Below are positions 2,735-35,800 of a DNA stretch of 39,498 nt, in pieces (positions within the stretch are counted from its first letter, which is position 1; each line of letters opens with the position of its first letter). Location of the stretch: contig JYFJ02003618.1 in assembly GCA_000934665.2 (NCBI GenBank), positions 1 to 39,498 of the forward strand, written 5' to 3'. The notes under the pieces were generated by a model that was not told where the DNA came from, searched no databases, and saw only the letters and a program-made list of their open reading frames with translations. The translations under genes were made by a program, and so were the position numbers. This stretch comes from Catajapyx aquilonaris. Its lineage: Eukaryota.

Positions 2735-2773
2735 CTGATATAAAGTGATATTAGTTGTGTATTAGCTACTTCT

Positions 2774-2804
2774 TGCGCATGCGCATAGCAGATGACGCCA
2801 TTTT
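2774..2804 (+). promoter_or_regulatory. Proximal promoter motifs of the SMC1-like gene: NRF1/Erect-wing palindrome and YY1/Pho site
   Basis: Perfect TGCGCATGCGCA at 2774-2785 and CGCCATTTT at 2796-2804, 70-100 nt upstream of ATG 2872. Confidence 0.55.
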
Positions 2805-2871
2805 GGAACGCGGCCGAGTGCGGACAAGACGCGTCTCGTTCTCTGCACCCAAGGGCGGCCCCGGGGCGAAA

Positions 2872-8800: not shown

Positions 8801-10824
8801 GTTGAGGAGGAATTGGATTCACTTCTGCATAAGCAGCACTTCCTGCTCCACAGTTGCTTGGTGAGTGATTCAAGTGCATTAGTGCAAGTTGGAGAAATAT
8901 TTAGGGAAGAACAATGAAGAGGTGTTACTCATATTGACTGTAACTGGAACACCACACCTAGATCGCTGGATTGTATGTGTAGAGGAATTTCAGGAAGGTA
9001 CTTTCTATGAGATTCTATTGAAATGTGCTTTCCAGGTAAGAAACATACGTATCCCCCTGCAAGCTGGACAACTTCAGGACCATGCGGAATTTCTAACCAC
9101 TCCTGAAGCGGAACTGTCGAATTATTCAAAGGAGGAATTGCGTGAAATGTTGGAGTAAGTTGTGGTTTTTTTTTTTAAATTCCCTGAGTAGAATTACATG
9201 TTGGTATTATTTAAATGTTTCCACTTGTCTTGGTAGAATGCCTGATTGTAATTTTCTTATTCTTCTTAGGGCCTTTTGTTGTTATCCATGGTAAATCCAC
9301 ACCAAATGCTTAATTATATCTGAATATGCAACTGTCCAATTAGGAATGAAGATGCTTTTTTTAATTATTTACCATGATCATAGCTAATTCAAATGACCTT
9401 TTGTCTTAATACTTCCCCGTTTCAGATCCGTTGGCATCGACTTCCAAAGTTTAAACCGAGATTTTCTGGAAGCTGTCAGGAATAATGAGTTTGAAAGACT
9501 TGAAGCTGAATTAATGACTGATCGTACGATACATCTGAGCCAGATGAAAAAGGAGTACACGGGTGAAAACGTATGTACTCTATTTATTTATTTGTATGGT
9601 AAATGTGTTGAATTCATCAGTGTGTCAGTGTCATGCACATTTATTCATGTTATTCTCTGACATGTATTATTATTTAAAAGTACTGTACACTTCAGCCAGT
9701 TGCAGGGCTTGCATCTCGTAAACTGTGCACGTCCCTTTGTGATTAATGGTTGGTAATTATACAAGTAAGACAAATGTGCTGTTATTAATGTTGCTATGAC
9801 TCGTTATGTAATTTGTTGTACCCGATGGTCATAAACGTATTAAACTTGGCATAATCAGACGTGCATTTGTCTTGTAACCACAGTCAAGGGCTAACCTGAT
9901 GAAGCAATTGGATGATGAATTGAGACTCCAAAACGAGCTGAAGGAGATCAGCAATGAAATGAAACACCTGCAGAAGCAAGTGAAGGAAATGGAGGTGTTG
10001 AGGAAGGACAAGTTCCTGGCCTGCTTCCAGGAGGTTGAAAGAAACCTGATGAAGTTCTACAAAGTTAGTAGCTTGATTAGGTGGACGCGAGAGCAGGTCA
10101 AATAGCCGTTCTTCTCAACATCCTCTCATTGCAGAAAGTGACGGACTGTGATACGGTGCAGGCTGTCCTGTCTGTGGACAAGGACAGTGCCACTCCATAC
10201 AATTGCCCTGTCACGTTCAATTGCGTTGTACCGGGGAAGAGATGGGTGCCTTTCGAATGTATGTCTGGCGGAGAGAAAACGCTGGCTTCCATGGCTCTTC
10301 TTCTTGCCATCAACGAGTAAGTGCAGGCTGTTTTGTAACTGTTATATCTCGTTGCTGTCAGTCGGTTGCATACTAATCTTGCGTTACCTTCCAGCTGGCA
10401 GTCCCCCAGTTTCTGTCTGATGGATGAAATCGATAGCGCTTTGGATGGGCACAACAAGCGTCATGCAGCTGCGGTCATCTCTTCGTTAGCAAATGCAGGG
10501 AAGCAGTTCTTTGTTGTGACTCACAAGAACTCTTTCCTGCTTCTTGCAGACTTGATGATTGGTTTCAGCGGCCATGTGAGTTGCTCTGTTCCTGTTTTCA
10601 GGCACATAACCTAGAACAGTACGTTGCACGCTGACTTCTCGTCTTGTCTGATCATTTTTTTACAATTGCAGAAGGACAGGGCCAAGAAGAAGCAGACGTC
10701 AACAAGGGCTTTTCACCTATCACTTAAGGGCTATGATCTGGGCGTGGTTGAGGAGGAGGTGGAAATGGACGAAGAGGCAGATGAGGAGCTGCCTATGGAC
10801 TTGTCTCCTCCCTCATTTGTCTAG
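2872..10824 (+). CDS. SMC1: Divergent structural maintenance of chromosomes protein 1-like (cohesin SMC1 paralog), ~1270 aa, 24 exons
   Basis: Phase-consistent GT-AG exons: 2872-3058, 3124-3241, 3304-3403, 3462-3613, 3683-3851, 3914-4120, 4195-4431, 4502-4716, 4790-4991, 5159-5379, 5446-5608, 5700-5825, 5883-6014, 6130-6195, 6378-6532, 6703-6800, 8405-8586, 8738-8860, 9036-9154, 9426-9570, 9884-10063, 10135-10316, 10395-10575, 10672-10824 (3813 nt, open frame). N-head FKCFRGSHTFGPF..GSNGSGKS..AISFGLG..LRVK; coiled coils; SMC1-type hinge GRLKDICEPIDKKYDRAITLILGKKMDTLIVD; C-head NCVVPGKRW..MSGGEKTLA..LMDEIDSALD. Exons 7 and 17 need AAG acceptors to keep frame. Confidence 0.88.
6865..8323 (-). 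mobile_element. Putative non-autonomous transposon (Helitron-like) inserted in SMC1-like intron 16
   Basis: Intron 16 is 1604 nt versus 57-313 nt for the others. The right end reads A|TCTTCCTTCTATCTATAATATTAAA on the minus strand (Helitron-like 5' TC). The left end has CTAG, an inverted pair CTAGAAAAA/TTTTTCTAG (6873-6881/6942-6950) and a duplicated CTCGCTTCGCTC. It contains an internal minisatellite and is flanked by direct AGCAATAT (6857-6864, 8324-8331). No transposase ORF. Confidence 0.45.
7513..7795. repeat. Minisatellite, ~9 units of 28-33 bp, consensus AATGTTCCAAACAAAGGGTT(G/A/C)CCAACACACAGC
   Basis: Head-to-tail tandem units are directly visible. They produce the repetitive ORFs seen in all six frames. 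Confidence 0.95.
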
Positions 10825-11806: not shown

Positions 11807-13147
11807 TCAGCTGTCTCCGCGTAAGGTGGCCAACAAGTCGCCAGATTCCTGCATCTCCTTGACGATGTCCAGTCCGCCAATCAGTTCTCCCTTGACGTAC
11901 ACTTGAGGGTAGGTGGGCCAACTGGAGAAAGTCTTCAGTCCCTGGCGGACCTCCTCGTCTTGTAGGATGTCAAACGTCTCAAACTCAACCCTGAATTTGC
12001 AAAAACCATTGTTTGTTAATTGAGCTACATGCGGCGTACATCGAATTGACCTTACTCTGCCCCTTTTAGTATGTCGATCAGCTGCCGGCTGAACCCGCAC
12101 CTGGGCGTCTCAGCATCCCCCTTCATGAAGACCATAATGTTATGCTTCCGGACCAACCCACCCAGCCTTTCTTCAAGTGGCTGCTTCTTCGGGAGCATCG
12201 CAGCCAGCTCCCCATTCTCCGACATCTCCCTCATTATATCCAGCCCGCCGATCAACTCTCCGTTGATGTACAGCTGCGGGTACGTCGGCCAGTTAGAAAA
12301 TTCCTTCAGACCTTGCCGGACCTCATCGCTGCTCAGTATGTCAAACGTGCTGTAGCGGGCCTTGTAGTCGTTCAGGATAGCCACTGACTGCTTGCTAAAA
12401 CCTGATGAAGTGGAGAACAATTAGACGGGTAACAATGCGAAATGAAAGCGATCTTACCGCATCGAGGTTCCTGCGGGTTTCCCTTCATGAACAGCATGAC
12501 GGGAGCTGCGTTAATCAGCTTCTTCAGTCGGTCGTTGATATCCTCTTCTTTCCCCTTCAGCGTCCCCTCCGCATTGTTGCTCCCTTCCTGAGCAGCCTGC
12601 CTGACCTTCTTGGTCAGCTCCGGAGCCCTTGCGCCGTCCACACGTCCCACAGCCTTCCCTCCCCGAAAGAGGATGACCGTCGGAACCGAAGTGACCCCAT
12701 GGGCCAACGAGGCTTCCGGAACCGACTCAGCCTGCAGAAGGAAGAACCGAACAGCGGACAGGTCTGCAGACGACGCCAGTTCCCGCATGCACGAGGTCAC
12801 CGTCGTGCATTGCGCTGCCCATTCCGCACAAAAGTGAACCACGGACAGATCAGCAGACCTGGAAAGTAATTAAGTCACATACCCGATAATTGCATTATTT
12901 ACCGCCATGTACTATACATTTAAAAAAATATATCAATGGAAAGTTCTGGATGCAAAAAAAAAAGTGAGTTCATTGCACTTGATCAAACATTGGTTGTGTA
13001 CAATCGGGACGAATCATACACCCAGCTGATAAATGAGTGTTGGCCAATTTGTTGTACATTAATAATACGCAATTATTTCAATTATTTAATTGCTTACTTG
13101 ACAATTTTTTCCAGCTCAGATGAACTCTGCACGTTCGAGAGCGCCAT
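11807..13147 (-). CDS. GLRX3: Glutaredoxin-3 (PICOT/TXNL2), ~326 aa, Trx-like domain plus two monothiol CGFS Grx domains
   Basis: Minus-strand exons 13147-13098, 12858-12458, 12401-12056, 11990-11807 (981 nt, GT-AG, phases consistent). Motifs: [84 protein letters not shown]. Confidence 0.95.
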
Positions 13148-16359: not shown

Positions 16360-16729
16360 ATCTGCAGTAGAAAAAATAAGTATGGTCAATATAATGGCAG
16401 TTTGGGTACCTCAACCAGCAGATTTATAAAATATAAAAAAAAACTCGCGACTCACAACACCGTCCTTTTACCTCCAGTAATGGTCAGGGGCTGGACCTTT
16501 TCACTTGACATAACAGCTATAAAGTTGTCCCTTCGGGCATTTCAAAGTGGCCAGAAAAACCGTTAGGTCAGCTTCCAAGGCCGACAAGGTCCACTAAAAA
16601 AGCCGCTCTCTGAAAGAAGAAAAAAGAGAGGAAATTCCTTTATAGATGCACCCCTCCAGGTATTCGCTGCATTCACCCAAAAATTCCAGCCTCTCTTTGT
16701 TGAATCTCCCGCAGATTTAATATCCAACA

Positions 16730-19700
16730 ATGTCGTCGTCTTCACCGACGAAACGGAAGAAGGAAGGGTCGTACTCTGAGGTACCTCAAAATGGAGACAT
16801 GGTCCTGGGGGATCCCGCGGAAGAGACTGGAGCCGTGTGTCTGAAGCCCAAGATGAGCCTGATGAACGGAGTGACGGTGATTGTCGGAAGCATCATCGGA
16901 TCGGGAATCTTCGTGTCACCAACCGGTGTCCTTCTGGGGACAGGTTCGGTCAACATGTCCCTAGTGGTGTGGACAGTGTCCGGCCTGTTCTCCATGGTCG
17001 GCGCCTATTGCTACGCCGAGCTGGGCTGCATGATCACCAAAACTGGAGCGGACTACGCTTACATCATGGAGACATTCGGACCTTTCATGGCATTCATCAG
17101 GCTATGGATCGAGTGCATGATCGTTCGACCGTGTTCTCAAGCCATCGTAGCACTCACATTCAGCATCTACATACTCAAGCCCTTCTTCCCGACATGTATG
17201 CCTCCGGACGAGTCTGTGCGTTTGCTTGCGGCCGTCTGCATTTGTAAGTTGCTATCGTTGGACGTTAACAATGTCCATTCTGAACTTTACACACACGAGA
17301 TGCAGATAACAAAAAATGTTATTAACCACCCCCGTCTGGATGAGTAATAAATTATCGCGTCTCTAAGCCACAAATGAGTTCGTCTGCGAGCAAAATATTA
17401 TTCCAAAGAGAAGACCTCTCATTCTTGATTAGAACACATTACGCGGTGGCCCAGGCAATAGGTCAAGCGATGTCGATCAATCACCCGGAGTATGACGTGT
17501 ACTTCACTAAGCCGTTTAGGCTGCTATATTTGCACAGGCAGTTTTTCCAGTGCCGCACATAAAACAGCAGCTTCCTTTATTGCAGTCAAAGTGGCCAAAT
17601 TTTGCGATCACGCCTACAGGGTGCCGGTTGGGGAGAAAAAAAGCGCAATCTGCAAATGTGACATTTCGCCAGCACACTAGAAACAATTAGGCAGGAAGGT
17701 GTCTATTAAAGCCAGTGAGCAGAGGATGGGGGGGAGAATCTCCATTGCACTTTTAATAGAATGGATTCAGAGTCTGCTGGGAAGTCCCAAAACGACTCCT
17801 GCGAAATATTATACCACAGGTATACCACTGGATGTAGGACAGGTTCTAAAAAGAGAACTGGATGAACAAAAGGGCTGCTTTGTTGGATCTCTAAAAGCAG
17901 CTGCGAGCTTTACAATTTTTGTCGACTGTAATTTGAATCCCGGACTCGGAGGGTGCTGAGGGGGAATGGAACTACTAGGGGACAAAAATTCCTGAGCATA
18001 ATTGTTCATTTTTTTTTGTCAGGAGCAATAGTTAGAAACAATTAAGCAGATGATCAGCGACTGTGCGTGACAAAAGTAGTACCAGATTATATCAATTCGT
18101 GACCGTCAAAACTACTGGATAATATCTCAGAAGTTTCTAAGAGTATATTTTGGGAGCAGTGGAAATTTAATTTGAAATCCTGTAATCGCATCTGGAGTGT
18201 GCAATTGTGTTCCTAATCACTATTTTTTTCTTGGCTTTACACCATCTTCGTTGATCTTTGGAACGATCCTCTTTTTTTTTCTTCTAGACCTTTGATCGAA
18301 ACCTGTCGTAAAGTTTACTTTTCGGTTTCCTATTTCTGCTTGGAGCGTACTTCTCACGGTCAGAGCCTGGAGTGCAAACTCGTGTACCATCAGTCTACAC
18401 ACACACACTCACACTTGACGTCCGAAGTTGATCGTTGAGCTTGCAAAACCTCAGATTCGCGGGCGAAATTGGACACTATAATAAGTCAATGGCCTATACC
18501 GACAATCTGGAAATATCGGTTCGAAGTCCACTCTACACATAAATGAACATAAAAAGGGAATTGTTTACGTCGCTGTTTAGCGTCAGAGGCAAAGTTCAAT
18601 CTTTCTGAATGAGAGCAGTATGAAAATAGGCTACTATAATTATTATCTCCGGATTTTTCTAGCTATATTTGGAAAATTAACTTACACTTTTTTTTGTATC
18701 CTGAGTCTGACGACATGCTTAGCGAGATTGCATGACCGTATAGTATAATACGCTGAGGTCAATGGCACATACCGTGTGTGAGCTGAGGTTTGATTTACAG
18801 CACGTGTTCGATGGCGGCCTCTGTCCTTGATAGATCGGCGAGGATTGGCATAATTCAGCAATAACTCAATGCCGGTTATAGAGAGGCTTTGTCACCGAAC
18901 AAAAATTTGCGAACATTTTCACGTTGTCAGGATCCGGTGACCTGTCCTGGCGTTCAGTAAATGAAATTCCGAACTGGGGGACAAACACATGTGTGTTGCT
19001 CAGAGGTCAGAGCCGAAAAGAGGTTTTTTGGCGAATAGACCTCAGCTTATATAGCCCAGTTTTTGCAAGGTTGCCTCCATATGCATGGTTGCCATATGTT
19101 CCCTACAAATTGGTGGGAACAATGACCGAAGGGCATGCCAATGTTAAATATTTAAAAAAACAGTGTTACCGCAGGAATTAGTGAAATTCCGGACATGAAA
19201 AATTGAAATTTGCGATTTTCCAAAGAATCGGCAGAAAACCTGGAACGTATGCTATAGTAAAATCTATAGGAAAATCTAATAAAACCAGTCGAAGTCTGGG
19301 AGAAGTGCAGAAAAATAAAATACATAAGAAAACCTCAGAAGTCCCTGGAGAATCCACGGAAAACCACAGAAATCCAGACAACTCAGGAAGTCCAGAAAAA
19401 TAATCTGGAGATTACAAAGATAATGTGCACACATCATTTGAAATTACGTCTACAATATCAGTGTAGACGTCATCAGGAGTTTGCAGATTTTTTTTCTCGT
19501 CCCGTATTCTTATACCACCTGTGGCTTTTATCTGCAGAAAGGTGATGCAACTATTCGCGAATGTGGCGTGTTCCCTCGTCAACAAAGGAGATGGGATGCG
19601 CATATACACATATACAAGTATATATAACTTACCTGACCCCAGACCTGCAATTTAATCCACGCTGCATCAAGCAGGGTTGAAAACCTGTTTATCCCCGATC

Positions 19701-22700
19701 AAAAAGTGTTAGCATGGTCTGTATAATTAAGGTCGGAACTGGCTGCAACTAGAATATGGATTATAGATAAAAACCCGGATATTTTTTCTTTGTATGCGAA
19801 TATATGTGTGCGGTGCGAGCGTCAGTGGCAAATACGCAGATCGATGACGAATTATTAGTCAGACGCGATCGATTCGTCAGGGTCAACCGTCGTGAGCAGA
19901 CTGAAGCAAGAGTCATTGTTGATGGTAGTAGGGCGTCTATGTGACGTCATTGATTTCTGTTGCGTGGGAGGGTTTTCGGTTTTTACGTGGGCCGAAGAAC
20001 AGATCGATAAGTTGGCAGGGTGCCCAAAAATGATGTGACGTCGGTTGGGGAATAGCCGAATTCTCCAGGGTTGATGGCCTCCTATTTCGCTTCCCCCGGA
20101 ATTCCGGAATTCGGAATCCATTTTGGACTAAATACCGTGACTTGACAGGGTCGGATTTTATCTCGTAGTTTCATAAGGCCTTGATTATAATAAACTGCAG
20201 CTGCCCTGTTGAAGTTGTCGATTTGTTTCGTTTGAATATTGGTGCTAAACTGGGTGCTAAAGCAGATATTGTCATACAATAATATAAATATATTGGACAT
20301 GTGTATCAGAATTATATCTGATACACTAATCCAATGGCTTTATTAGTTTTATTATTATGGAGAAAGTTGTACAGTAAATGAGCACTCCCTATATAATTAT
20401 ATCAAATGCTGATATGATGAAATTATGACAGTGAATATTTCCTTAAAAAATTTCCAGAAAATGTTGAAAATGTTTCCTTACGCCTAATCATGGCGAAATA
20501 GGGAAAAGTGCATATTTCAAGACAAAATTCGAAATATAGATAAGCCTTATCTCAAGTGCCAATGTAAGTGCTCGCCACTCCGAGAGATATGAATTATATG
20601 GAAAATGTATGGTTTGAAATAATATGCTCGACAGTACACTATAATTATGTTAGCTCATAAACCACGGTGCTTGATAACACCTACATCTTGTTATCATGCT
20701 TCCTCTGGCTCACGTAACCGAACGTAAACATTGCATAAGCCAAACATTGCACAATCCATTATTTCTTGATTGACACCGTATCGATGTGATATACATTGTC
20801 TTGATGCCTGTCACTGATTGGGTTAATTAATCTATTGCCTCATTACTGAGACTGACCACGCGCTAATGTCATGAACTACATTTTACACTATTTTTCTTCC
20901 CACAGGTGTCTTGACCTTTGTGAACTGCTGGGACGTCAAATGGGCAACACGTGTTCAAGACGTCTTCACATATGCCAAACTGCTAGCACTTTTCATCATC
21001 ATCATCAGCGGTATTGTGCAGCTCGCATATGGTAAGCATTCAGGTCACCTCTACCGTGGGAGATCGGATCAAATGCCACGGCCAGACTTGAAAGGGTCAG
21101 TGTCACGGTCAACAGACGTCCGATAAGAACGAGGAAAATTTTGCTGTCACCTGAGCTGTTTCTCATCGCGAAAACTCTTGGCGATGGCAATCCGAGTAGG
21201 CAATGGACCTTGGAAGATTTTCAGGTCGATTTACGCTCCCGTTTTAGCCATGCGCGACGGCTGGACTCATATTAATGTCCGTCTGCTCGAAATTAATTGC
21301 TGTCATTAAGCATTGTAACGCGACGCTTTGTTTCCTGGCCGCATTCAGTTGATTTGTGTCCAAGCTTCTGATTACGAGAAAAGACGTTTGGACAGACTCT
21401 GCTGTAATTATTATTATCGTTTTTTTTGCAAGACTATCTCAGATGTCGCCTGTCGTCTGCGGATGTCGCCTACTGTTGTGCAAAAAAAAGTCTTGTCACA
21501 CCCGGCTGATGATAAAAAATAGGACAATTCCGGTTAAGATCTTGAGCAAGGATTTTCTTCCTGGGTCCATGACGCGGTTTTCCACTTGCGGTTGCATCAG
21601 AAAACCTGGCGGCGTAGGAGGACCGCAGATCATTATACCAGGAATCTCAAAAAAAGACGGCCTGAATAGAAGGATGATATTTCTGCATTGAACAACTTTG
21701 GGAAGAGCTATACTTAATTATAAGCTTCAAAAGGAGTGGGTCGACAGCCCACAGGATATTCTAAGCCGCGTTTAGTTAACTGTATTCTGCCCCCTACACT
21801 TTTCCTGTGTATTCAGCCTCTCATTTGTCATCTTTAGACTGGATGTCACAAGCACAGAGCGACTCCTTTCTCATACAGTTAAGAGTTCCTATAGTACACA
21901 TATTAGTTGCATAAGCGACTTTATATCTCTCTTCCGCTCAGCGCAACCGGAACACTGATACTGAATATTATTCGCAATGGGTAGGCCCTACATGGTACAA
22001 TCTGGCTTCATATCGAGGAATCATACCCCGGTTGTGATTTGAGAGCAGAAAATTCCATTGAGAAATCACATAAAGCACAATTGCTGAGTTCATTCCATGA
22101 AATTGGGTTGGCTGCCACAACATCCTTTTAGACTGATTATTCTAGTAGGTCAAATCATTTCCGCAATGGGAATTATCATGGGGCTCACAATATTGGGGTC
22201 AGACTATCAGTTCTATTTAGACTTATGTTTGCAAAAAAGTAAATGTATTTTTCCGCAAGATTTTCCGCTTCCTAATATTCTGCCTGTGACAGCGGGTGAT
22301 GGTCCTATGCTGTAATTTTCCGACCCTCTTGCCTCATCCTCTTCCACTTTTTTTTTTGGCCAGTGTATTTTTGGGGCTTCCCCCCTCCCATTTCCTCCCC
22401 CAACACGAGGGCGAAACTAGAGTAGAACGCTGTCTGCATCTTTTTTTCTCTCTCTCGATTTCTTTTTTGGCTTCTCGCTTTCTTCAAAGCGGAGACGCGT
22501 GTTGCATTTTTGAAGAATGTCCAAGTACCAGGACCGAAGGAAGTGCAAGTGTTTATAAACAGATTACTGTAACTTTGCAACCTAGTAACTTACGGTCCAC
22601 GTGGTCATGTACTACAAGTATGTAGAGTTAATTGGTTGGTGGGTGGGAAAGTGAAAGGCGAACGTGGTAAACGATCAAGGGAACGTGACCAGTTTGTAGT

Positions 22701-25700
22701 TGGCGATGCATTTTACGACTTCAGAAAACCTGTTATGAGCATACACCGTTGTAGTTTATTGCACATCAGTCTACGGTACTTCATCATATAAGCCAGGACG
22801 ATATTTTCTATTGCAGGCTGTCATCAGGGTAGTTTCTTGAGAAGGATGTAATAATTTTGGGATTCACGAACACCACATTTTCCACATGCACGGGCGTTGA
22901 AATGGGCAGAATTCGATTTAAATGCCAGTACTCAAAATATAAAAAGAATAATACGAGTAAAATGACATAAGCACATAACATTACAGAAAAAGAGCTAAAG
23001 TCCAAGATAATAAATTTGGAACTCGGTAAAGTACATGTGTTCAGGAAATCGGAATCAAATATTGACAAAATTTTGGTTGAAACACTTGACCCAATATGGC
23101 TGATGTCGAGTGGGTCAGATATCAGGAAGTTTTGACTCAAAGGCTGCATAATAATTATTTTTTCTACAGGGTCCTGAACTTCAGCCTTATTCCATTGCGC
23201 GGTTCAATTATTTTGTTGCTTTGGGAGGACGTATGACTGACAGTTAGAGTAATATTAGAAGCTGTTGGCGTTGTGACAGTGCATGCACCGTTACGATAGC
23301 CTTTACGAGATGTGTGTCCTAGATGCTGCATCTTAAGACACCGATAAGAAAATGGGGTCGTTTTCCGTCTCTTTTTATTGACGAATCCGTGGAAAGGTCT
23401 CTCCTGCTGCGATGGCCTTTCACTCCGAGAAATGGAACGACCCGGAACTATTTGCAGTCAATTTCCTCGCATTCACACGGACCTAAAAAAGGGACAGCTC
23501 TTAGAGACCGACGGTGCTGTCGGTGCAGGCAAAATTAGATCCCCGTGTCTTTTAAAGCCAGGGCGGGCTATACATCCAAGAAAGCGGAACCAGCTAGTCC
23601 GGACTGGAAATCCCCGAATTGTTGGGGAGAATATTCCAGCCCTGGGATTGGAATTGCAAATGTTCCCGCCAGCAGCGATCAAGACTTGATCCGATACCCG
23701 TCAGACCGATTGGAATAAGAAAAGACGGAACTGGCTTCCTATATGAGAAGACGTCCTCTTCTTATTCTGTGTTATTGTTCTGCGAACGTGGAGTCGCACT
23801 GGCGCCTGTATCCCTCCCGGATATATAACCTATTCGGTTTCTTTTCTTCTTCTGAAGCCTTCAAACCCGCGTGTTTGATCACAAGGGCTCGGGAGATTTG
23901 GAATGCAAACACTTTTCAAATCACGGACTTCCAATCGGAATTTTTGGAGCAAACATATGATAGACGTGACCTCTTGCAAGTTGTGTGGGTTTTTAGATTT
24001 AATAGGGTCGTCCTTTGGATGATGCAGCACCCTTCGTTATGAATACAATGAAGCAACATGTATGATTTATAAGGTCCGCACCAAACGCGGCTTGTGCGCG
24101 AATAATAGTTGCAAATCAGTGCCACGCCTTTTTCGTACGTACATTTAATGAGGATGTTGTTTGTACAATATTTTGTGTGTCTAATATATTTCTATTTTTT
24201 ACAGGAGAGACCAAGTACTTCACGTTTGAGAACACGGAAACAGACGTACGGCAGATAGCGCTCTCGTTTTACTCCGGGTTATTTGCGTACAATGGATGGT
24301 AAGTGACGCGCTTTTATCATTGGTTTCACGACATGACCATTTTACTGTCGATTGTGACAATATTTGTAACATATAGCTTGATTGTAGCCGCCTGAGTACC
24401 GGAGACAGGGAACAAATATTTTTATGGGACAAAAACCGCATTGTGCAGTTCGCTTTCAGCCTCGGTCCACCTGAAGGGATCCAATTTATCTGCCGAAGAA
24501 GAAGAAATAAATGAGACGAAGGATTTTGGCCAATGAAGCTCCTCTCTGATCCTGCACCTAATTTCGCAGAATCGGATTTGGCGCCCTGTTCAATCCCGAG
24601 CGACTTGTTATAACTATATATAAAAAAACCTTCGTGGAAGTAATTAGGACTTGGACTTTGCGGCTTTTGTTTAATACCGGGAATATCCTTCTGGATTGCC
24701 CTTATATATACTGCTTATATGCCAACATTGTAGTGATTACTATTTCGTCGTATATTCGGTAGATATCATTCCCGGTCTTGTGTAGTTAGATTGGAAAGAC
24801 CAGTCCGCAGCTAGATTAAGGCGCGTCTTTGACAGGATGACGTTAATTAATTGCTGATAGTTTTTTGATAAGGGATCGGCTGACGTGTCGGCGTGTTTTG
24901 GATGTTAACGACGGAGATGCGGACGTAACTAGAGTTTGACGGGAAAGCAACAGGTGTAGGAAATGACCTTGACAAGTATAGGCATAAGTCGTGTACTATT
25001 TCTATTTTTTTTTCTCTCGAGTGGTTTAGACACTTTAGAGATAACTTAGCTTGCGATGTTGATGGGTCAAAAGCATTTTATGGTTATGGGCCTTACAGCA
25101 GATAGGGTGGGTCATATGTCGCTGCAGCCTTGACCTGATTGAGGAATAGCTCTTATGCAGATCTGGGTCGGTAAGTGTAGATAATTGCAGTGCAGTCTAC
25201 TATAGTCTTGCCTTAACCATATAAACGTATGGCATACATGTGTCACTGTACATAGAATCAGCAGTTGTCTCTATCACGATAAAACAGATTAAGCACTACT
25301 GATGTAATAGTGGAGTAGCAAAAGATAATGTGTATACAGTACGTTACGTAAACGGCAGTTGACTCTGGAAGACGTAAACTGCTACACGACATTTAATCGA
25401 CTTGAGTGAGTGAATGGGAAGGCCAGTAAAAACTTTACGGAACTTATAAAATAATGTCATATCATAACCCTAAAAATATATATAATGTGCCTACATAATA
25501 AATAACACTTTGTTTTCAATTACAGGAATTACTTGAATTTCATCATTGAAGAACTGAAGGATCCTGTAAAGTAAGTTGGTCGCTTGGTTGGTATACTGTA
25601 CGAAAAGAATTCCGTAGCATAATATTGAAGTAATAACTTATTTGACGACCATTAATTATACCACTAATATTTTACCAGTTTTGCTACTTGCAGCTGTGTA

Positions 25701-28700
25701 GTGAACATTCCGGTTTTTTTTTTCAAACTCTTTAAAACTTTATCAAGGCCTCAATTGTCTTGTAACTTTCGAGACTTCTGGTTCCGATTTCATGTGTAAC
25801 AATATTACTTTCGCTTATTGTTCCTTTCTTTTCTCGAAGGAATCTGCCCAGAGCCATTGCCATTTCGTGCATTTTGGTGACAGTTGTGTACGTCATGGCC
25901 AATGTCGCCTTCTTCACTACGCTTTCACCACAGGAGGTTCTCAGTGCCGAAGCAGTTGCAGTGGTAAGGAACATTAGTCCCCACCAAGAAACAAGTAGCA
26001 GTGACTTTATGCCCTCAGATACAATCGTAATAATTTAATAAGCAAGATGCTGCATGCTCTTGCAATTTTTATCGGGCGAAAACGAATTCTCTAAGGCACG
26101 TGTAATTTGTAACGATAAATATGTTGGGTTTACTGTATAATTGACTGCATTTAAATGCACACGTTTCCGGCAATAAATCAAGTTTTCAAACTATTTTGAG
26201 CTAAACGCACGTGTCAAAATGTAGCAGGATTCACCTGATTAGGTTCCATATTGACGAAAATATACCCGTAGTAAAGTACAAGTTAATTGAAAATGTAATA
26301 TCGTATAATACTTTACTGATACAAAAAAATTGTGACAAACAGTTGAAGTGGCGCTCAATGAGAATACCTACAGCAAAAACATCTGTATAATAATATGACT
26401 TCATTTAATGCGGCCGCACCCAAGGCCTCCGCGCACATGTTCATTACGATATGCAGAAATTGTCCTCGTCCGAACTACGCTGTATTGCATGTTATGCATT
26501 AAAGACGACAAGTTGGAAGTGCGAGGGGTGTGGGCCTGTAGTACATTCAAGGTTACATTGCGAACATGTTTTTGCATATAAAATGTGACGTGCCAAGAGG
26601 GCAAATGGCACGAAGGGGCCAGCTCGGTCAAGAAAAAAAAAGAGAATGAAATCTTGATGTCCGATCATTTGGTTTTTTTTAAATCTCTTTCCTATCTCAG
26701 CTTGACCTCGTTGAGTTGCTAAACGGTTTGAACATTTCAAAAGAAGTAAGCCAGTTCAAGACTCCCTGGGTGCTAAAATAAATTCGCAGAATTATTTTTA
26801 ATAAGGGCATGTGGTGTTTAAGATATGAGATGCGCGCAATACTCTTTTTTTTAAGCATCATGATGTCTACAGAATATTTAGAATGACGTTTCTTGCAGGA
26901 TTATGCGGGATTTTACCTGCAAATTTATCATGACATGTTGCATCAAGTGCAAAGCATACGTACTTGACGTGCGCTGGATTACTTATCTGCAACTATGTTT
27001 TTTCCTCTTTGCAGTCTTTTGCCGAGAAACTGTATGGAAAATTTGCGTGGATCATTCCTGTGTTTGTTGCCATGTCAACATTTGGAGCTGTCAACGGTGT
27101 CCTTCTGACGTCATCCAGGTTCGTTGAAAAATTTAATTGCGAGTTTGTGTGAACAAACTCGTTAACTTTAGCCGCCGGCAATCCATTAAAAAGTTATTTA
27201 TACTGTATATTTAAAAAAACAAACACCCCTTCAATTTGGTACTTTACTACTTTGTGTACTGCACGGAAGTACCTCAACAGCCTTGTTCCCTGCATTTACG
27301 ATCAATTAAATAATCACGTTTCAGTTGCCAAATGAATGTAAAAGTTACACAGAATATACTGTAGAATTTCAGATAAAACACAGGTGATATACAGTAATGC
27401 ACACCATTGAAAGAATTAATGTCAACATTGAGAGGCAATTATTGCATTTTTTATTCACCTGCGTGCATTACCAATATGACAAAACAGCTGTAGTAGGGTA
27501 TGTGACTAATATGATTGTATTATCCTCAGATTGTTTTATGCTGGAGCCTGTGAAGGACAAATGCCTGTGATTCTAACAATGATCCAAGTCAGTCGGCTGA
27601 CTCCAACTCCCGCTGTTCTTGTCATGGTAAGTACTGGTTGTATGCATCACAGAGTATGACAATGCTCATTACTACACTTTGAGCTGATTCACTACATGAA
27701 TTCAGTGGACCAGCTGAGAGGGCATTAACCAGAGTTCAAGTTTACTTTAAATATTTATCGCTGGTGATAAGCTCGTCTGACACAGCAAATAATTTCCCAA
27801 TAGCCAGAGCAGACCGGTCATCTTATAGATGCAGCATGTGAATGTGGGATGACCAGTTGTAGAAGTAAAGAGGCCGTAAACACATTAAGTTGATGGCATT
27901 AGCTGTTATAGAGTGTGCCTCCGTATCACATTGCTTGAAGGCAACAAAAAGTGACTACTGATAATCTCTGCCTGCATGTACTGTACGTAAATATGGGTGA
28001 AAGGACTGGTTATGGAGGATGCATAATTTTACTGCTGTTTATTTATATCAAGGAAAGATAAAGTAATGCTATAATTCTGCCAGTGACTGCATGGCACCCA
28101 ATAATTATTACCAATATTTCCATATGTGATTGAGGATATCGAGGGAAAGCTATCATTACCATACAGAACAGTGGCACACTAAAATAAGTTAATAACTAGT
28201 CAATTGGTATGGCAAAAAAACTTATAGGTTTTTGTTGGTATTTATCATGAATGAGGCGCTACGAGTACAATAGTGCAGCTTACAAGGCGTTACATAAAGA
28301 AGTAGGAGTTTTAATTTTCGTAATTAGTAGGCCTATATTACAAGCCCGGTAATATTATGTTGTTGTTAAACAGGTTGCAATATTATTCTGTCTCATTCTG
28401 CGTAGACATTAACAGACAGGCAGAATGATCTGGGACAGAATCAACCAATGAAAATCACAAAGAGATAAATTCGATATGACCTACAAGCATACGATTATGA
28501 TATTTCTCTCAGAACAGCAGTCCTTATCTTATGCTCCATATCTGTGTTTAGAGTAATTCAGATTAACATGACCATCATAGTAATATTTTGGCAATTGTGT
28601 TTAATTTTCTCTTTACACGTGAATTTCGGCAATTTTGGTATTGCATGATTCCTTGGACAATTACCGTATAACCATCAAGGACGAAATTGTTTCAGAACAT

Positions 28701-29766
28701 TCCCTCTTGATAAATACATTATTGTATGACAAGTATATTGCCCTGAGATATCTGGACAATGCACCACAACCATTGTAGAGCAATGAGGAATGCATTATGA
28801 ACACATAACTCTTTTGACAGCATGACTGCACATCTCACGAAGGGAATTTGTAGGACACTGTATTACCAAAATGGATTGTTATGGCCCGTGAATACACAAA
28901 AGGATCACTAATTACTGGCGCTAGGTCAAACTTGGCCCACACAGGATGCACTAAAAGTATTGTAATCTTCAGCTAATGTTTTACAGCCTCTTTTTACATA
29001 AAGTCGGGTTTTATTGTAAAAGGATATTTCATACTACAGTATAAAGTTGTTACACATCCTTGGGTATGCCATATCAAACAGATGCATTGTGTGCAGCTCC
29101 AGTTAGCATAATATTTAAACGTCTAACATGTATGCAATTTTTCATTTCAGGCGCTCCTCTCCTTGCTTTATTTATGTTCTTCGGATATTTTTGCGTTAAT
29201 CAACTACGTAGGATTTGCCACATGGGTAAGTCCTGCACTCTGGTTTGGGATGAGAGCAAATCACTTTGAACTGATGTATACTCTTGAAATATTCCAGCTG
29301 AGTATCGGCCTGGCTGTCCTGTGCCTACCATGGTTGAGATGGAAGCGACCCGAACTTCCCAGGCCAATCCGAGTCAACCTGTTCTTCCCAATCATCTACA
29401 TCATTGCCACCATCTTCATAACCGTTGTGCCAATGATGGCCAGTCCTGTAGAGACAGGTATCGGAACACTCATCATTCTCAGCGGAGTTCCAGTCTACCT
29501 TGTGTTCATCTCCTGGAAGAACAAGCCCCGAGTTGTGAGGCAAATTACAGGTATGTTTCATCAGGTGGAATCACCTGGATACAGTAATTATTCCAGGCTT
29601 GTTAAGTGTACGGGTATAACAGTGCCAATAACTTTTTTCTCCCTGAAACGCAGCGAGAGTGACAAAGGAACTTCAAAAAGTGTTGCTTGTGGTTGCTCCT
29701 GAGTCTATGGCAAGGAGGGAAGTGTCAGGATCAGCATCGACGCAACCTTTAACCGCTCAGAAATGA
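16730..29766 (+). CDS. SLC7A8: L-type (large neutral) amino acid transporter light chain, SLC7 LAT1/LAT2-like; isoform A with last exon 10a, ~514 aa
   Basis: Exons 16730-17243 (acceptor at 16714, so an upstream non-coding exon exists), 20906-21031, 24205-24298, 25526-25570, 25840-25963, 27015-27118, 27530-27626, 29151-29225, 29298-29550, 29654-29766. Motifs: [10 protein letters not shown] (TM1), CYAELG, KPFFPTC (heavy-chain disulfide Cys), [15 protein letters not shown] (TM6), KNLPRAI, SSRLFYAGA. The symbol is family-level only (likely co-ortholog of SLC7A5/SLC7A8, Drosophila CG1607-like). Confidence 0.92.
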
Positions 29767-31120
29767 TAGCGTCGAGTCTATGATCTCCTTTTCTAACTTG
29801 CCTTTTTGTAGGGGGACTAAGGCAAGGAATACTTAACTCCCAATTGGGATCAGTTCTGATTCTTTATTATGTCTGCACTCTTGCACATTCTTCAAAAAAA
29901 AAAAAAATCTCACCTTTGCTTTATTTATTTTTTACTCCCTTGTTAGGTACTCTTTCTGTCTTGTGGCCGCATGTTTTATTACGAAAATTATCAAGGTACA
30001 TACATGCTCCCAGTTATTTATGAACATGCTGAGTGCAAGGTATTCATTGGATAAAGCAAATTAAATTACTTTAGTACTGATGGGGCATATGGATGACTAA
30101 TATCCACTAATTGTTGATGAAATGATCCGTAGAATCATACCTAAGGCCATAAATGAAGTAAGAAAATGCAATAAGTTCAATAATAATAATATTAAACAGA
30201 CAACGAGAAGTGCAATACAATCATACATGAAATGCACGAAATACATTATTTTAATACCGTATATTCCATGAAACAATAAAATTATACAAGTTGTCAATGG
30301 ACATTTCATTAGCACTTGATTTCTTAGGCTCCTGACAGTACTGCTTCCAATGAGTGAACATTATTATTATTACTGCATATGCTCATTCCATAAACTAAGA
30401 GATTGGAGCACTATTTAGAACTGTAGCATTATTCATATAAAATTTATATTCACATGGAATGTAAGCCTGCTCTTTCTCATAGGCATGACATATTTCTTCC
30501 TGCATTTTCAATGATAATGCTAACCATGAAAATGTAATGCGAAAGATATTTTGCATGCAATTCTAACCAGATACTAGATTTATTAGACTTTCAAATATAT
30601 TCATTATTATTACATCTCATTACATCAGATAACTGGGAGTTCATAGTTCATGCCCCTCATTTTTTTAAAAACTGCTAGACTGGACATAATGCAAGACATG
30701 TTAATTTCTTCCCTTTGTAGTTAAACATACAGGAACATGCAACACTTTACATCTCACCAACTCCATCGAGGCATGAAATCAACTAATATGCCCTAATATA
30801 ATCTCTCTCTCTTCACACTACAGCATATTACATGTTATTATTTTGGAATATTTATTTATTAATAATTAGTAAACATCATAACAAAAGTTTTATTATAGAA
30901 CTTCTGACTGCGATGATGTGACGTCAGCTTGATTTTTGCATGATTGGTGGTGTCATCGGTTTCATACAACTTTTATATTGCGTATTGTATTTATAATTTT
31001 GCCTCGGTGTTTTAAACATGTTTTCATCTCATTTGGTTTCGTTTATTACTGTGACGGTGTCGTAACCTGCATTTTGAGTTTTGCGTCTCTGTACTAGGAT
31101 AATTTCCTCTGTGCTTCCAG

Positions 31121-31245
31121 AGTCTGTAACTATGATGATGCAGAAAACTATGATGGTTGTGCGACCTCAGTCTTCCAAGGTTTTTGCTCTCTTGTTGATT
31201 AGTAGTGACGAGAGCTTGTGTGTTACCACTAATGATGCCCATTAG
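31121..31245 (+). CDS. Alternative last coding exon 10b of the SLC7/LAT gene (isoform B, ~518 aa)
   Basis: Acceptor tttcctctgtgcttccag| in the same phase 1 as exon 10a. Encodes (E)SVTMMMQKTMMVVRPQSSKVFALLLISSDESLCVTTNDAH*, homologous to the LAT C-terminal T-x-x-x-QK-x-x-x-VV motif. Confidence 0.75.
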
Positions 31246-31815
31246 GCAATATATAAACAGCAGACATGTGACTAATAGCTGTCATAGAATAGGTTCAGTG
31301 TGTTAGATATTTTTTTATAAATAATTTCTTACGTAACGTATTTTTTTAAAAATCAGTGCCAGCAAACTTTTTAAAGTAACTGCTGGTGTATAACTCTGTG
31401 TAGTAGTGGTAACATTTTTTAAGTTATCAATTTCAAGCTAATACTCTCTGGAACAATGAACACATAATGTGCAGTGTTTCTTAATCAAAGTAGTGCCATT
31501 ATTAAGTCCCAAACAGTGCGGTACACAGTGGTACTTATTTTGGCCCAAAATAAAATCCTTGCATTGAGTGTTGCCTTTGCAACAATATAAAATAGCGAGA
31601 TCGCATAAAAGGCGTGACCATTTCCCCTGGTAAAATAATACCCTGTTTGGGCATGCTTTTTCAGTAATTGTGTTATTTTAGTCTTAACTCAATAATTAAA
31701 CTTCATCATCATTGTAGCATAGTGTAGCCTTCTTCACCTTTGCTTCTCTTTGACATTGCATTTGCTGCTGTTGCTTTGACAAAAGTTATTAATGCAAATT
31801 TCATTTCCATTGCAG

Positions 31816-31883
31816 TGAGTATAACGAGGACTCTTCAAAAGCTGATGGTAGTGGTGTCTGCAGAAACAGCGAAGAAGGTGTAA
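31816..31883 (+). CDS. Alternative last coding exon 10c of the SLC7/LAT gene (isoform C, ~499 aa)
   Basis: Acceptor tttcatttccattgcag|, phase 1. Encodes (V)SITRTLQKLMVVVSAETAKKV*, homologous to exons 10a and 10b and to LAT C-termini. Confidence 0.82.
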
Positions 31884-31951
31884 AGTGCATCGCACTAGAA
31901 TCGTCAATGGTTTATTATTTTTTTTGGAATTTTTACATTATTTATGTTTTA

Positions 31952-31994
31952 AAACAAACTGAACTTCACAGTTTGTTTCACACTGTGAAGTTCA
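31952..31994. repeat. Overlapping inverted repeats (10-bp and 13-bp stems)
   Basis: AAACAAACTG (31952-31961) pairs with CAGTTTGTTT (31969-31978). TGAACTTCACAGT (31960-31972) pairs with ACTGTGAAGTTCA (31982-31994). Confidence 0.8.
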
Positions 31995-32820
31995 CGTTGT
32001 CCTATGGATACTTTATATTACGTCGCATTATTTTTAATGTTTTTTTTGTATTTTCCAATTTTTTTGTTGCTAAATTGACCATATTTTTGTAGTCTTAATA
32101 GTTGTCACGGAATATGCCGCATTGGCGTCTCAGGAGACGAGCCAATAAGACACAACAGCTATTGGAACTTAACAATATTTTCAGTGTTATTACCGGGAAT
32201 CCAGACTGTCATTCCAATGCCATTATGATGTCTCACTGTTCATTGGTAACACTGTATATGTATACGCTGTAACATTGTCCTGTTTGTCTCAAAGCAACAT
32301 TCCAGACGACGGGTGGCTGGGGGGGATCGAACTATAAACTGAAGCAAAAGAAAAATATATATCTAAATGCCGCCTGTTACTCGTTCAATGTCAGAGGAAG
32401 CTGTCTATGGTTCCCTCGTGTCTAGAAGTGAAGTCGTAACACATTCACTCTCACTGTGTTGGAAGTTGTGTTGTGGCCGTTGTCCAAGTTATGGATATCA
32501 GTATTACTGGAATATTGTTGCATTTTGTTCCTTCTCTTGTTTGGTGACGGATATGGAGAATCTCGTACATTACCTGAGGAGGATTAGAAGTTACACATGC
32601 TATAAAACAGGACATGAACGTCAATGAGACCGGGTCCATCCAACTGTCCTTCTGCTGTGATTTCCCTGTACACAGTACTATGCAGCGAAAATTAATAGTG
32701 TTTATACAATAGAGTCGAATCACATTACCACACATTGAATCCATTGAGTAACATCGACTTTTCCTTTGCACCCATTTTACTCCTCGGATTCCAAGATGTT
32801 GAGTATAGTAATTTCTTTAA

Positions 32821-32859
32821 AAAAAAAAACGACGACCACAATGTTCGTCGTTTTTTTTT
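32821..32859. repeat. Perfect 15-bp inverted repeat (hairpin, 9-nt loop)
   Basis: AAAAAAAAACGACGA ccacaatgt TCGTCGTTTTTTTTT. Confidence 0.75.
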
Positions 32860-35800
32860 GGTCAATGATCAATAGTCGTTATAGTTTACAACTGGATTTT
32901 GAATTTTGAATACCACTGTGCTTCCAATGAAAGTGGTTCATTTATTCAGTTGTCAGCACAGCCATATTCGAACACTTTAGAGAACCCACTCGCCTTTCGC
33001 AGTTGGTAGGCATAGTTTCAAAGTAGGAAATTTCAGGAAGGGGGAAATAAATAGGACCACAGTTGATATATACCTCGGGACAAAAGCGTACCGCAGGTAG
33101 AGCCTTTCTTTTTTTCGGCGACGTTTCACATCAGAATCTCACTCGTCAGACCAAAAAAAAAAAATCCTCACAAATGTAGTGACCAAATCCAAATATCCTT
33201 CCACTAATGAAACAAAAAGACTTTTATAGGACCTCGGTGCCTAAAAGTCCTCCTATGTATCTGAACAGGGTCCTCCAGAGTCTCAAAAAGAAATTTTGCT
33301 GACGACAATAATAAATCTCAGGATGAGGAAGTGCAGTGTACAGAGAGAGAGGGGGAGAGGCGTATGTAGTGAGAAATATAATCCAAGGTGCAGATAAATA
33401 CCGGAACTGACACCGGCTGTGATTGGACCTCAGCTGAGAAAATGTTCTGTAATATAAACTGTAGTTATACTGTAGAGTGATAAGAGCATCTTATTTTGCC
33501 AAGATAACTGCCGGGCCTTCTTTTGGCGTTGGAGTGTTACAGGAACTTGAGTGGGTGACAAATCTGATATTGCGGAGTGTAATGGTGAGACTGCAAGACT
33601 ATGAAACCATTTTTTTTTTGAGAGAGATGAGGGATGGCAGAGAAAGAGTGAAGGATGTATATGTTTTTATTTATGGTTGGTGTGCTTTAGTCGTAAGCCA
33701 ATTGTAGCCATATCATGGTCAATAACAATTGTTGTCTGGGACACAAGGGGAGAGACCATAATGATGAATGAAACATGCCAATAAATAAAGGTGTGTAAGA
33801 ACTGACTTGCGTTTCAGTAACTCTGGCTCTAAAGGACTTTATCCCACTTCTTGTGCATTGTGCGTACTGCTTCCGAGCTGGAATTTGCAATTAGTGGCTC
33901 AAGAGCTTTCTCATCAGTCTGGCATGCACATGGTAATTACTCAACTGATGCCCTTCATCCGCTTCGGTGGATGATTGACAATGCCAACCCTTCTCCCTGG
34001 TGCATCATCCTGAAGACCAATCTCTTTCCAAGTTCAGGTAGGCACTGACTGTCATAAAAAATTAACTCTTGATTCCCTGATTGAGACCAGAAATGTTCAC
34101 TAGTTTGCACATAAAATCCTGCTAAATATTACTGGAAAGACTCTTCAGCATGATCACCACTTGTTGAGCTTGTCCAGCCCTCTCGTGGGATCGTCGCAAA
34201 ACATTATTGGCAAAATTTGTCGCTAATCTGAAAAACACGATTAGTAATGAGCAGGGCTTAAATCCAGATATTACGCAGGATGATGATTAAGACCCACAAT
34301 TAATTTGCATCTCAAAATATTACACGTTGATAACAACATCAGCTTTAAAGGTGTCAACAATGACACTCATTCTACTGCAATGCAGATTGAATTAGTCTGT
34401 ACAGGGTAAGTCAATTTTTTGCCGGATTTTCATACATCTGCAGTTTCATGCGAATAAAGCGCAATAACCAGCAGACCAGGCCCAAGGAAGATAGGAAGCA
34501 TTTGGGTTCCCCAAAATGGCTACTTAAAAGTCGTGCAGCTTCGTAGCAGATAAGTAAGCAAACGCGTCGTCGTCGTTGTCGTCGCTAAAAGTTTTATCAG
34601 GCGACACTTTGTTGGAGAGAAAAGAAGGAGGAAAAAAAATGCCAACTGAACCTGGGATTTTAGCATCCGGGGCCACTTAGAAAAGAGGGGGGGTGTAATC
34701 ACCTAATAAATATTCCTGGCGGAGAGAGAAGGCTCCTGGCTCCTTCTTTTCGACCTTTTACGAGTGTGGGAAGTACACTGGTTTTATGTTGTTTACACGG
34801 AAGAAGTTGTCTAATCTCTGAAATGAGGAAAGGTTAGTGCTTACCGGGTCATCTCATCATGCAAATGAGCCTCAATTTCCCACCCAAATTATGTTTCCCT
34901 GGCGCTGCTTGTCCTTTTGCAAATCGATGGACCAAGAAGCAGCAGAGAATGATGATGCTCATGTTATGAGGCATAACTCTCCTGATGCCGTATCCCTAAG
35001 TGAAAGACACTCGTAATATTAACCCTAATTGCGTCTCTTGGTCGATCCACATCTTGAGAGGCCAAGGGAATTATTATTGGAGGGACATATTTGTGGGAAT
35101 TACAATCTGGCGTCTGGTACTATCCAAGTTAGCCAGTTTTGCTGTAGTTTTCTCCCGGTTTTTTCTTCAAAACTGTGGCTATTTTATATTCACTCTGAAG
35201 GTTTCTGGAGACTCCTATGGGTATTCTATAGAATAGGTGTAATATTGTGTATTCATGCGATGTTCAGTTAACGGTACTTCAAAGGGCAGGTTGCGAGGCT
35301 GGGAAATGTTTGTGATGCAAAATAATTTTCCCAGGAATATTAGACCTGCGAGAGGATGGCTTAGGCTTACCTGAAATAATATCACCTGAGGTGAAATTAG
35401 TTAAACTCCATACTCCATGCGCCTTATGTAAGGCATTGCTAATTATTCATCGCCCCCACCTGAGCCGTATACATTAACGTAATTGTTCCAAGTTATTAAA
35501 GGAAGAGTAGGCTCTACTTCAGGGGAAATCAAGTGGCAATACTTGAAGAGAGAGTAATGCGTTGTGAATACTTCGCACACAAGTAATTCACGGAATTTAA
35601 TGCAAGTACAAACCGAATATAATATTAGTACCGTGCAATACTGCTGGCAATTACCAGGGAAAGTGAAAAAGAAGCACCGTCGAGTTTAGCATTAAATATA
35701 TCCAAGGAGAACACGTCCTTTTACGATGAGCTAAATGTTACCATTTTAAAGAGAGGATTTAATAGTAAACAAAACCGCCCCCGAAAATTTACGATTTCAT

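Follow-up and report, generated by a model that had tools for sequence, protein, structure and literature searches.

How many different C-terminal tails can a single LAT-type amino acid transporter gene of Catajapyx aquilonaris encode, and if there are several, which one is translated? The question is raised by contig JYFJ02003618.1 (assembly GCA_000934665.2), the 39,498 nucleotides (nt) of which were analysed as a whole and are referred to below as the window. This animal DNA carries on its + strand, from about position 16712 to at least position 33749, a gene for an SLC7 light chain of the LAT type. Exon 9 of this gene is followed by three homologous exons (10a, 10b and 10c) that each encode a version of the C-terminal tail. 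An earlier sequence-only reading had taken these for 3' exons that exclude one another, every one of them with a separate 3' untranslated region (3'UTR) and poly(A) signal. On balance, we favour a different organization, in which the three tail exons are stacked behind a single splice donor, 10c is the default, the proximal copies are optional, and the first copy that is included is the one that is translated.

The existence of the three exons is clear from a straightforward comparison with related proteins. The acceptors behind exon 9 are preceded by pyrimidine tracts and read ...ctgaaacgcag/CG (29654), ...gtgcttccag/AG (31121) and ...tccattgcag/TG (31816). When joined to the G at 29550, the three frames run for 37 (10a), 41 (10b) and 22 (10c) residues before they reach a stop codon, and both the coordinates and the translations are exactly those of the three phase-1 acceptors and exons that the sequence-only reading had proposed. 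We constructed a hidden Markov model (HMM) from 76 distinct homologue tails, none of them taken from the window, and ran it on the 1978 six-frame segments of the window. Significant matches were obtained with 10c (E 9.8e-9), 10b (E 3.8e-5) and 10a (E 1.3e-4), and no fourth copy of the tail was found among the 1978 segments, the next best of which had an E of 0.99. Moreover, all three matches are located on the + strand, in one intron, directly behind an AG and in the phase that is set by exon 9. The locus thus shows what characterizes an exon cluster, namely neighbouring homologous exons of one phase behind a single donor.

The mutual comparison of the three cores is informative with respect to their age. 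Pairwise, 28-33 of the 59 nucleotides and 7-8 of the 20 residues are identical. Among the codon positions the second is the most alike (12-15 of 20 identical), the third is near random (7-9 of 20), and the flanks of the exons are unrelated. Because of this combination of near-random third positions, similar second positions and unrelated flanks, the three tail exons are, as judged from their sequence, old duplicates that were kept by selection on the peptide and not recent, decaying copies. Decaying duplicates, which the sequence-only reading had named as evidence that would speak against it, are therefore not borne out, and 10b is in addition close to the tails of insects. The tails that would result are far from equivalent: the position that corresponds to the Val-Pro-Pro motif of mammalian light chains reads VVAPES in 10a, VVRPQS in 10b and VVSAET in 10c, and the free ends differ as well (...TAQK or ...ESM in 10a, ...SSK in 10b and ...AKKV in 10c).

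The core to which these tails are to be attached could be assigned on basis of both its first and its last common exon. The translation of exon 1 matches the Pfam domain AA_permease_2 (PF13520) with an E of 2.7e-14 and 53 bits (cut-off 27). Exon 9 alone has no match in Pfam. A database search with this exon yielded, at a threshold of E<=0.001, 172 proteins, and PF13520 is present in those for which Pfam domains are recorded. The best matches are arthropod proteins that are 74-78% identical and carry the name 'Y+L amino acid transporter 2' or 'LAT2-like', with relatives in Daphnia, spiders and thrips. The comparison with solved relatives was made with the Daphnia homologue P0005 (77% identical to exon 9 of the window) and not with the window protein itself, and gave human LAT2 (E 5e-155), y+LAT2 (8e-155) and LAT1 (7e-150). 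The alignment of P0005 with the human light chains extends into the tail ...QKMCVVVYPE, the human LAT2 counterpart of which is ...LLTLVSQKMCVVVYPE. In addition, the cysteine in the FPTC region of exon 1 aligns by motif with LAT2 ...LFPTCFPPESGLRLLAAIC; we take this cysteine to be the disulfide partner of the heavy chain. The identification as an SLC7/LAT light chain, which had been put forward from the sequence, is thus upheld by the PF13520 match and by the LAT2/y+LAT2-like homologues.

Direct evidence on the use of the exons comes from RNA, in the form of assembled spliced contigs of one run on one sample; such contigs drop minor forms. They confirm eight GT..AG junctions of the gene, including those from 29225 to 29298 and from 29550 to 31816, whereas the junction between 25570 and 25840 has no RNA cover and was set by the reading frame together with a donor (GTAAGT) and an acceptor (AG). 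The contig over exon 1 has a loose end of 187 nt before 16712 that lies off the examined stretch, which indicates that an upstream non-coding first exon (5'UTR) is spliced to a CAG acceptor at about 16712-16715. At the other end of the gene, a contig of 1640 nt (depth 28) joins exon 9 to position 31816 and continues without interruption to 32859, and a second contig spans 32851-33749, so that the 3'UTR of 10c measures at least 1.87 kb. The form with 10c only is the sole tail junction to exon 9 seen in this run. We conclude that 10c is the constitutive terminal exon and provides the default tail; of the junctions for which the sequence-only reading had proposed a check, the one from 29550 to 31816 is in use. 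The first three bases of 10c (31816-31818) are TGA, and thus constitute a stop codon when the exon is entered in phase 0. As an aside, the 3'UTR of 10c contains a near-perfect hairpin at 32819-32859, composed of an A run, CGACGA, a loop of 9 nt, TCGTCG and a T run, and the two 3'UTR contigs break, and overlap by 9 nt, exactly at this hairpin.

Two further RNA contigs, both unspliced, lie inside the intron between exon 9 and 10c, and no contig of this run was found in any other intron of the gene. A second copy of either contig is absent from the window, where a repeat or transposon origin was tested. These intronic contigs may represent the run-on or the 3'UTR of a transcript that uses 10a, or a retained intron. 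The stretches 29654-29949 and 31121-31246 are covered by no RNA contig, and this was counted neither for nor against the use of the exons.

How the proximal tails could be used becomes apparent from the relatives of the gene. Among metagenome and metatranscriptome contigs, a scan yielded 64 related loci, some of which are near-duplicates, and at a tail threshold of E<=0.01 at least one tail segment was found in 44 of them, at least two in 19, and three in one (L007), with 20 loci having none. Database proteins also include pairs that stem from the same gene and differ in the tail only, such as P0024/P0037 of Lepeophtheirus salmonis (477 of 497 residues identical) and P0074/P0077 (472 of 483), and the Bombus proteins P0058/P0066, which come from two species (474 of 484 identical), likewise differ in the tail. 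The notion of one gene with alternative tails therefore extends to other arthropods, both in isoform pairs and in related loci.

The structure of several of these loci can be read in detail. The transcripts L044 and L020 derive from one organism (99.5-99.7% identity), and L044 equals L020 plus an insert of 97 nt that encodes ...LQKLLVVISPE and a stop. An alternative 3' splice site was considered for this pair and rejected: wherever the 97-nt difference is placed, it does not end with AG, which makes the insert a cassette exon. In L001 the difference is 64 nt and ends in AG, and there an alternative 3' splice site is compatible with the data. The genomic locus L050 has a proximal exon of 76 nt (...VVVSPE, followed by TGA), a GTAAGT donor, an intron of 67 nt and a distal exon that ends with ...GAEKPAQV, and the bee-like genomic locus L061 has a proximal exon of 59 nt (...VVVGPQKAK), the donor AAG/GTTCAG and a distal exon that opens with TAA. 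In transcript L019, a proximal ...VVVRPQKK tail starts 59 nt before the distal tail and is joined to it directly in another frame, with a stop two codons into the distal exon. Finally, the copepod-like transcript L007 (1626-2190) has three tails in a row (...VVVPPGTK..., ...VLPPQSK... and ...VLPKEKQA, then a stop) and is unspliced through the acceptor-like sites that precede the second and the third; it is the only other locus with three tails among the 64. Tandem tail exons thus occur within transcripts, two in L001, L019 and L044 and three in L007, and so the restriction to one exon per transcript that defines a mutually exclusive cluster does not hold in these relatives. Wherever the structure is readable, the first tail exon that is included is the translated one, and the copies behind it belong to the 3'UTR. 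At 56-97 nt, the proximal tail exons are tiny, and read-through into the intron occurs easily.

Transferred to the window, these observations suggest the following arrangement. The last coding segment, which by homology comprises the C-terminal helix and the Val-Pro-Pro position, would have been duplicated into three tail exons, for all of which exon 9 provides the one phase-1 donor, with 10c as the terminal default. The proximal copies would be optional, and whichever tail exon is spliced in first would be translated; since each proximal exon carries a stop or shifts the frame, the copies behind it would become 3'UTR. Splicing of 10b to 10c would bring the TGA at 31816-31818 in frame and yield a protein that ends with ...MMVVRPQSSK, inclusion of 10a would yield a ...VVAPES... 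tail, and the outcome would be two or three differing helices at the C-terminus of a single transport core.

For 10b, the sequence fits a frame-shifting cassette: the exon counts 59 nt, which is not divisible by three, it ends with AAG and has a GT behind it at 31180, and 10c opens with TGA. The same build is found in the bee-like genomic locus L061 (59 nt, AAG/GTT donor) and in the 59-nt insert of L019. Because of this build, and because 10c opens with a TGA in the shifted frame, 10b is probably a cassette that is spliced between exon 9 and 10c to give a tail of 20 residues ending with ...ESVTMMMQKTMMVVRPQSSK. The 41-residue tail that had been read from the open frame would then have to be shortened to these 20 residues, and the open frame beyond 31179, which continues to 31246, is probably intron. 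The tails closest to 10b are those of insect P0060 (...MMVVRPQSSR) and P0033 (...VVVRPQSK). In fact, 17 of the 76 distinct tails end with K and these have a length of 19-21 residues, in line with the predicted 10b tail, whereas the 21 residues that follow ...RPQSSK in the longer version have no counterpart in any homologue tail. The database proteins P0054, P0062 and P0015 continue with K/VF or K/VQ beyond the same boundary, which fits a GT right after AAG, and the extra 21 residues of the 41-residue version resemble the read-through in these three proteins.

The route by which 10a could be used is less straightforward. The frame of 10a is open for 19 codons further, to 29765, and the corresponding extension of 19 residues was found in none of the homologue tails compared. 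There are two candidate donors (29709/GCAAGG and 29721/GTGTCA), both of which would shift the frame to an early stop in 10b or 10c. Sites that agree with the donor consensus at 7 or more of the 9 positions occur after 10a only at 29996 (AAG/GTACAT) and 30461 (AAT/GTAAGC), and the former was discarded as the donor of 10a because the RNA contig 29950-30162 passes through it unspliced. The exon could be a cassette that uses the weak or GC donor, so that the tail ends with ...APESM. It could also be part of an unspliced run-on like that of L007, with translation ending at the 10a stop (29765); both intronic contigs would then be accounted for. Alternatively, it could have a poly(A) site of its own.

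Several points weigh against the proposed stack. Junctions into or out of 10a or 10b were not seen in the contigs of the one RNA run, from which minor forms are dropped. The 10b donor (AAG/GTTTTT) agrees with the consensus at 6 of 9 positions, equal to the weakest two of the eight confirmed donors of the gene, and it lacks the purines at +3 to +5, where six of the eight confirmed donors read GTAAG. Exon 10a has neither the early stop of the a-type exons of relatives nor a good GT donor nearby. Furthermore, the species compared are distant, with 78% as the best identity for exon 9; together with the 53% at best for the TRC8-like frame described below, this points to an arthropod that lacks a near relative among the sequences searched, and the splicing of these relatives is carried over to the window by inference.

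The organization as true alternative last exons, as proposed in the sequence-only reading, would endow 10a, 10b and 10c with 3'UTRs and poly(A) sites of their own (near 30295, 31570 and 33066) and 10b with its 41-residue tail (...TTNDAH). Every open frame indeed reaches a stop and then an AATAAA on the + strand (at 30275, 31549 and 33046), and the unspliced contig 29950-30162, which lies between the stop of 10a and the hexamer at 30275, would fit a 3'UTR of 10a. However, AATAAA is no more common behind these exons than elsewhere. The 39.5-kb window contains 70 on both strands versus an expected 52 +/- 7, or about one per 1.1 kb per strand, and since this density is near chance, each exon would by chance be followed by a hexamer at a distance of a few hundred bases. 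In addition, the RNA contigs, which by their nature do not mark the 3' ends of RNAs, run past the hexamer at 33046 and on to 33749, and contig 30545-30823 is located beyond the signal at 30275. The hexamers are therefore present as described, yet they were not confirmed as meaningful signals of the separate exons. The 21 residues past ...RPQSSK would moreover be without a counterpart among homologues, and in every relative with a readable structure the proximal exon is either joined to the distal one by splicing or continues into it, which also speaks against mutual exclusion. We thus regard three separate last exons as an unlikely organization, and one that is probably wrong for 10b.

We similarly consider it improbable that only 10c is functional in this species, with 10a and 10b as pseudo-exons, left over from the duplication and not spliced in any more. 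Such a state would account for the fact that the junction from 29550 to 31816 is the only one in the RNA run, for the weak donor of 10b and for the loss in 10a of the early stop that is typical of its type. Nevertheless, in both exons the AG acceptor and its pyrimidine tract are retained, the phase is right and the core is open, and both have significant profile scores. Exon 10b has also kept its 59 nt and AAG/GT, as in L061 and L019, while 10c has kept a stop codon as its first three bases, and although synonymous sites are near saturation, 10b still reads ...MMVVRPQSSK like the tail of an insect, which would not be expected of a 59-nt exon free of selection. Coincidental similarity to a short hydrophobic motif, finally, can practically be dismissed: with about 20 residues the motif is indeed short, and the pairwise identity is only 7-8 of 20, but the HMM scan refutes this explanation with three segments at E 1e-4 to 1e-8 among 1978, one strand, one intron and AG plus phase in common, and at least two tail segments recur in 19 of the 64 related loci.

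The positions of the exons and of the intronic RNA contigs are collected in Table 1.

Table 1. Exons of the LAT-type gene and RNA contigs in its last intron (positions in the window)
Feature	Position	Strand	Description
Coding exon 1	16712..17243	+	ATG at 16730; contains the cysteine of the FPTC motif; RNA contig spans 16712-17243; junction 17243 to 20906
Coding exons 2-8	20906-21031, 24205-24298, 25526-25570, 25840-25963, 27015-27118, 27530-27626, 29151-29225	+	GT..AG junctions in RNA contigs (25570/25840: see text)
Exon 9	29298..29550	+	last transmembrane helices; phase-1 end with G; donor CAG/GTATGT; RNA junctions 29225 to 29298 and 29550 to 31816
Tail exon 10a	29654..29767	+	open frame ends ...TAQK, stop 29765-29767; 'APE/SPE' type; HMM E 1.3e-4
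Unspliced RNA contig	29950-30162	.	inside the intron between exon 9 and 10c; depth 7.6
Unspliced RNA contig	30545-30823	.	inside the intron between exon 9 and 10c; depth 4.9
Tail exon 10b	31121..31179	+	predicted 59-nt cassette, ESVTMMMQKTMMVVRPQSSK; donor AAG/GTTTTT, GT at 31180
Terminal exon 10c	31816..33749	+	coding 31816-31884 = VSITRTLQKLMVVVSAETAKKV, then stop; 3'UTR to at least 33749; AATAAA at 33780

The remainder of the window holds other genes. A single frame of 555 residues at 833-2500 (+) codes for a RING membrane protein that resembles TRC8/RNF145 (TRC8_N E 2.8e-102, zf-RING_2 E 8.6e-11), the best database relatives of which are 50-53% identical, those with a name coming from stick insects, a millipede, a cricket and decapods. 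At about 2755-10800 (+), the list of open reading frames (ORFs) points to a multi-exon gene with SMC-like ATPase motifs (GSNGSG..., LSGGEKTLASMALLLAIN and FCLMDEIDSALD) and long coiled-coil stretches. At 7470-7860, a short unit (NVPNKGLPT.. / QQCSKQRV..) recurs in all six frames and thereby indicates that the DNA of an intron of this SMC-like gene contains a tandem repeat. A glutaredoxin-domain gene is located at 11807-12869 (-), where 12052-12420 matches Pfam Glutaredoxin with an E of 4.8e-18; in the ORF reading, the adjoining frames look like further thioredoxin/glutaredoxin modules of a GLRX3-type protein. Finally, about 370 nt upstream of coding exon 1 of the LAT gene, a C-rich run (translated PPPPXPPPP) contains a single N at 16346, which is probably an assembly uncertainty.

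The possible function of a tail swap can be approached via the light chains for which the role of the C-terminus has been studied. An excerpt of PMC9110406 describes that in b0,+AT the C-terminal helix meets the N-terminal helix of the heavy chain rBAT, and that the Val-Pro-Pro motif, which lies between the C-terminal helix and intracellular loop 4 (IL4) and holds the cystinuria mutation P482L, is linked to trafficking from the endoplasmic reticulum (ER) to the Golgi. For LAT1, deletion of residues 483-507 (helix H4) led to the loss of both phosphatidylethanolamine (PE) lipids at the interface with 4F2hc, according to an excerpt of PMC11065870. In Caenorhabditis elegans, the C-terminal PDZ motif of AAT-6, a member of the SLC7 family, binds NRFL-1 and holds the transporter at the membrane (PMC3419730, in excerpt). 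Because of these precedents, and because the tails of the window differ precisely at the Val-Pro-Pro position and at the free end, the likeliest role of a tail swap would, by analogy, be an isoform-specific contact with the heavy chain or with lipids, ER exit, or the binding of a scaffold. Among the 76 distinct homologue tails, 31 have V or L as the last residue, an end that is kept by tails of the distal type.

More tentatively, and with less confidence than we have in the stack itself, one may speculate that LAT-type genes of arthropods share an ancient tail stack in which the first included exon wins. Such a stack would represent an undescribed layer in the regulation of heteromeric transporters, by which one core is sorted to different membranes, or released from the ER, in a tissue-specific manner, a task for which vertebrates may use paralogues. 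If true, splicing would exchange the C-terminal helix, the position equivalent to Val-Pro-Pro and the free C-terminus (ends of the ...PAQV type as opposed to ...K or ...PE). The exchanged segment is the very helix that meets the cytoplasmic helix of the heavy chain and holds the interface lipids in the solved mammalian complexes, as described in excerpts of PMC9110406 and PMC11065870. A conserved natural set of two to three versions of one segment would then constitute a ready-made experiment on the role of the tail. There is also a consequence for annotation, as read-through of the proximal exon is seen in the database proteins P0054, P0062 and P0015 and probably also in the 41-residue version of the 10b tail.

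When placed next to the known systems, the gene has the fold of AA_permease_2 and the cysteine of the FPTC motif in common with the light chains that belong to heteromeric amino acid transporters (HATs; SLC7A5-11: LAT1, LAT2, y+LAT1/2, xCT and b0,+AT), and its tail ...[LM]QK..[VM]VV... can be aligned to the C-terminal end of human LAT2 (...LLTLVSQKMCVVVYPE). It differs from these in that the window holds three genomic copies of the tail, whereas we found no report of duplicated alternative tail exons in the vertebrate genes. A wider search of the literature, with subscription-only papers and FlyBase outside its scope, likewise brought up no paper in which tail exons of SLC7/LAT genes are described as duplicated or alternative. 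Complete novelty of the arrangement is nevertheless not upheld, since the public protein sets already include pairs of predicted isoforms that have alternative tails. The Drosophila gene mnd was considered as a two-tailed fly gene and was ruled out, because all its predicted transcripts encode the same protein according to an excerpt of PMC11352668.

The resemblance to AAT-6 of C. elegans concerns the family and the principle: the extreme C-terminus of AAT-6 decides on its retention at the membrane (PMC3419730, in excerpt), and the distal-type tails described here keep a hydrophobic last residue. Nevertheless, 10c of the window ends with -A-K-K-V, which is not a class I PDZ motif (S/T-x-hydrophobic). 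A likeness also exists to the arthropod orthologues from Lepeophtheirus salmonis, bees, flies, and Daphnia-like and copepod-like metatranscriptome contigs, which go under the names 'Y+L amino acid transporter 2' or 'LAT2-like'. In these, too, the donor is located seven residues past KNKP with the split codon starting in G, and two to three homologous tails follow, the proximal ones of the types ...RP..K and ...SPE and the distal one of the type ...(K/E)xPAQV, with the proximal spliced onto the distal. The orthologues mostly have two tails, whereas the window combines three, of the a-, b- and c-type, and the three tails of L007 are of other sequence types; the 19-residue extension of 10a has no equivalent in any homologue.

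The alternative use of tandem-duplicated exons in general is well known. Mutually exclusive clusters of such exons occur in insects in Dscam1, mhc and ion-channel genes. The tail exons of the LAT-type gene have the same origin by tandem exon duplication, and in both cases one structural segment is swapped in an otherwise constant protein. The difference lies in the way in which a single version is selected: the RNAs of the relatives described here carry two to three tails, and exclusivity is achieved via the first stop codon.

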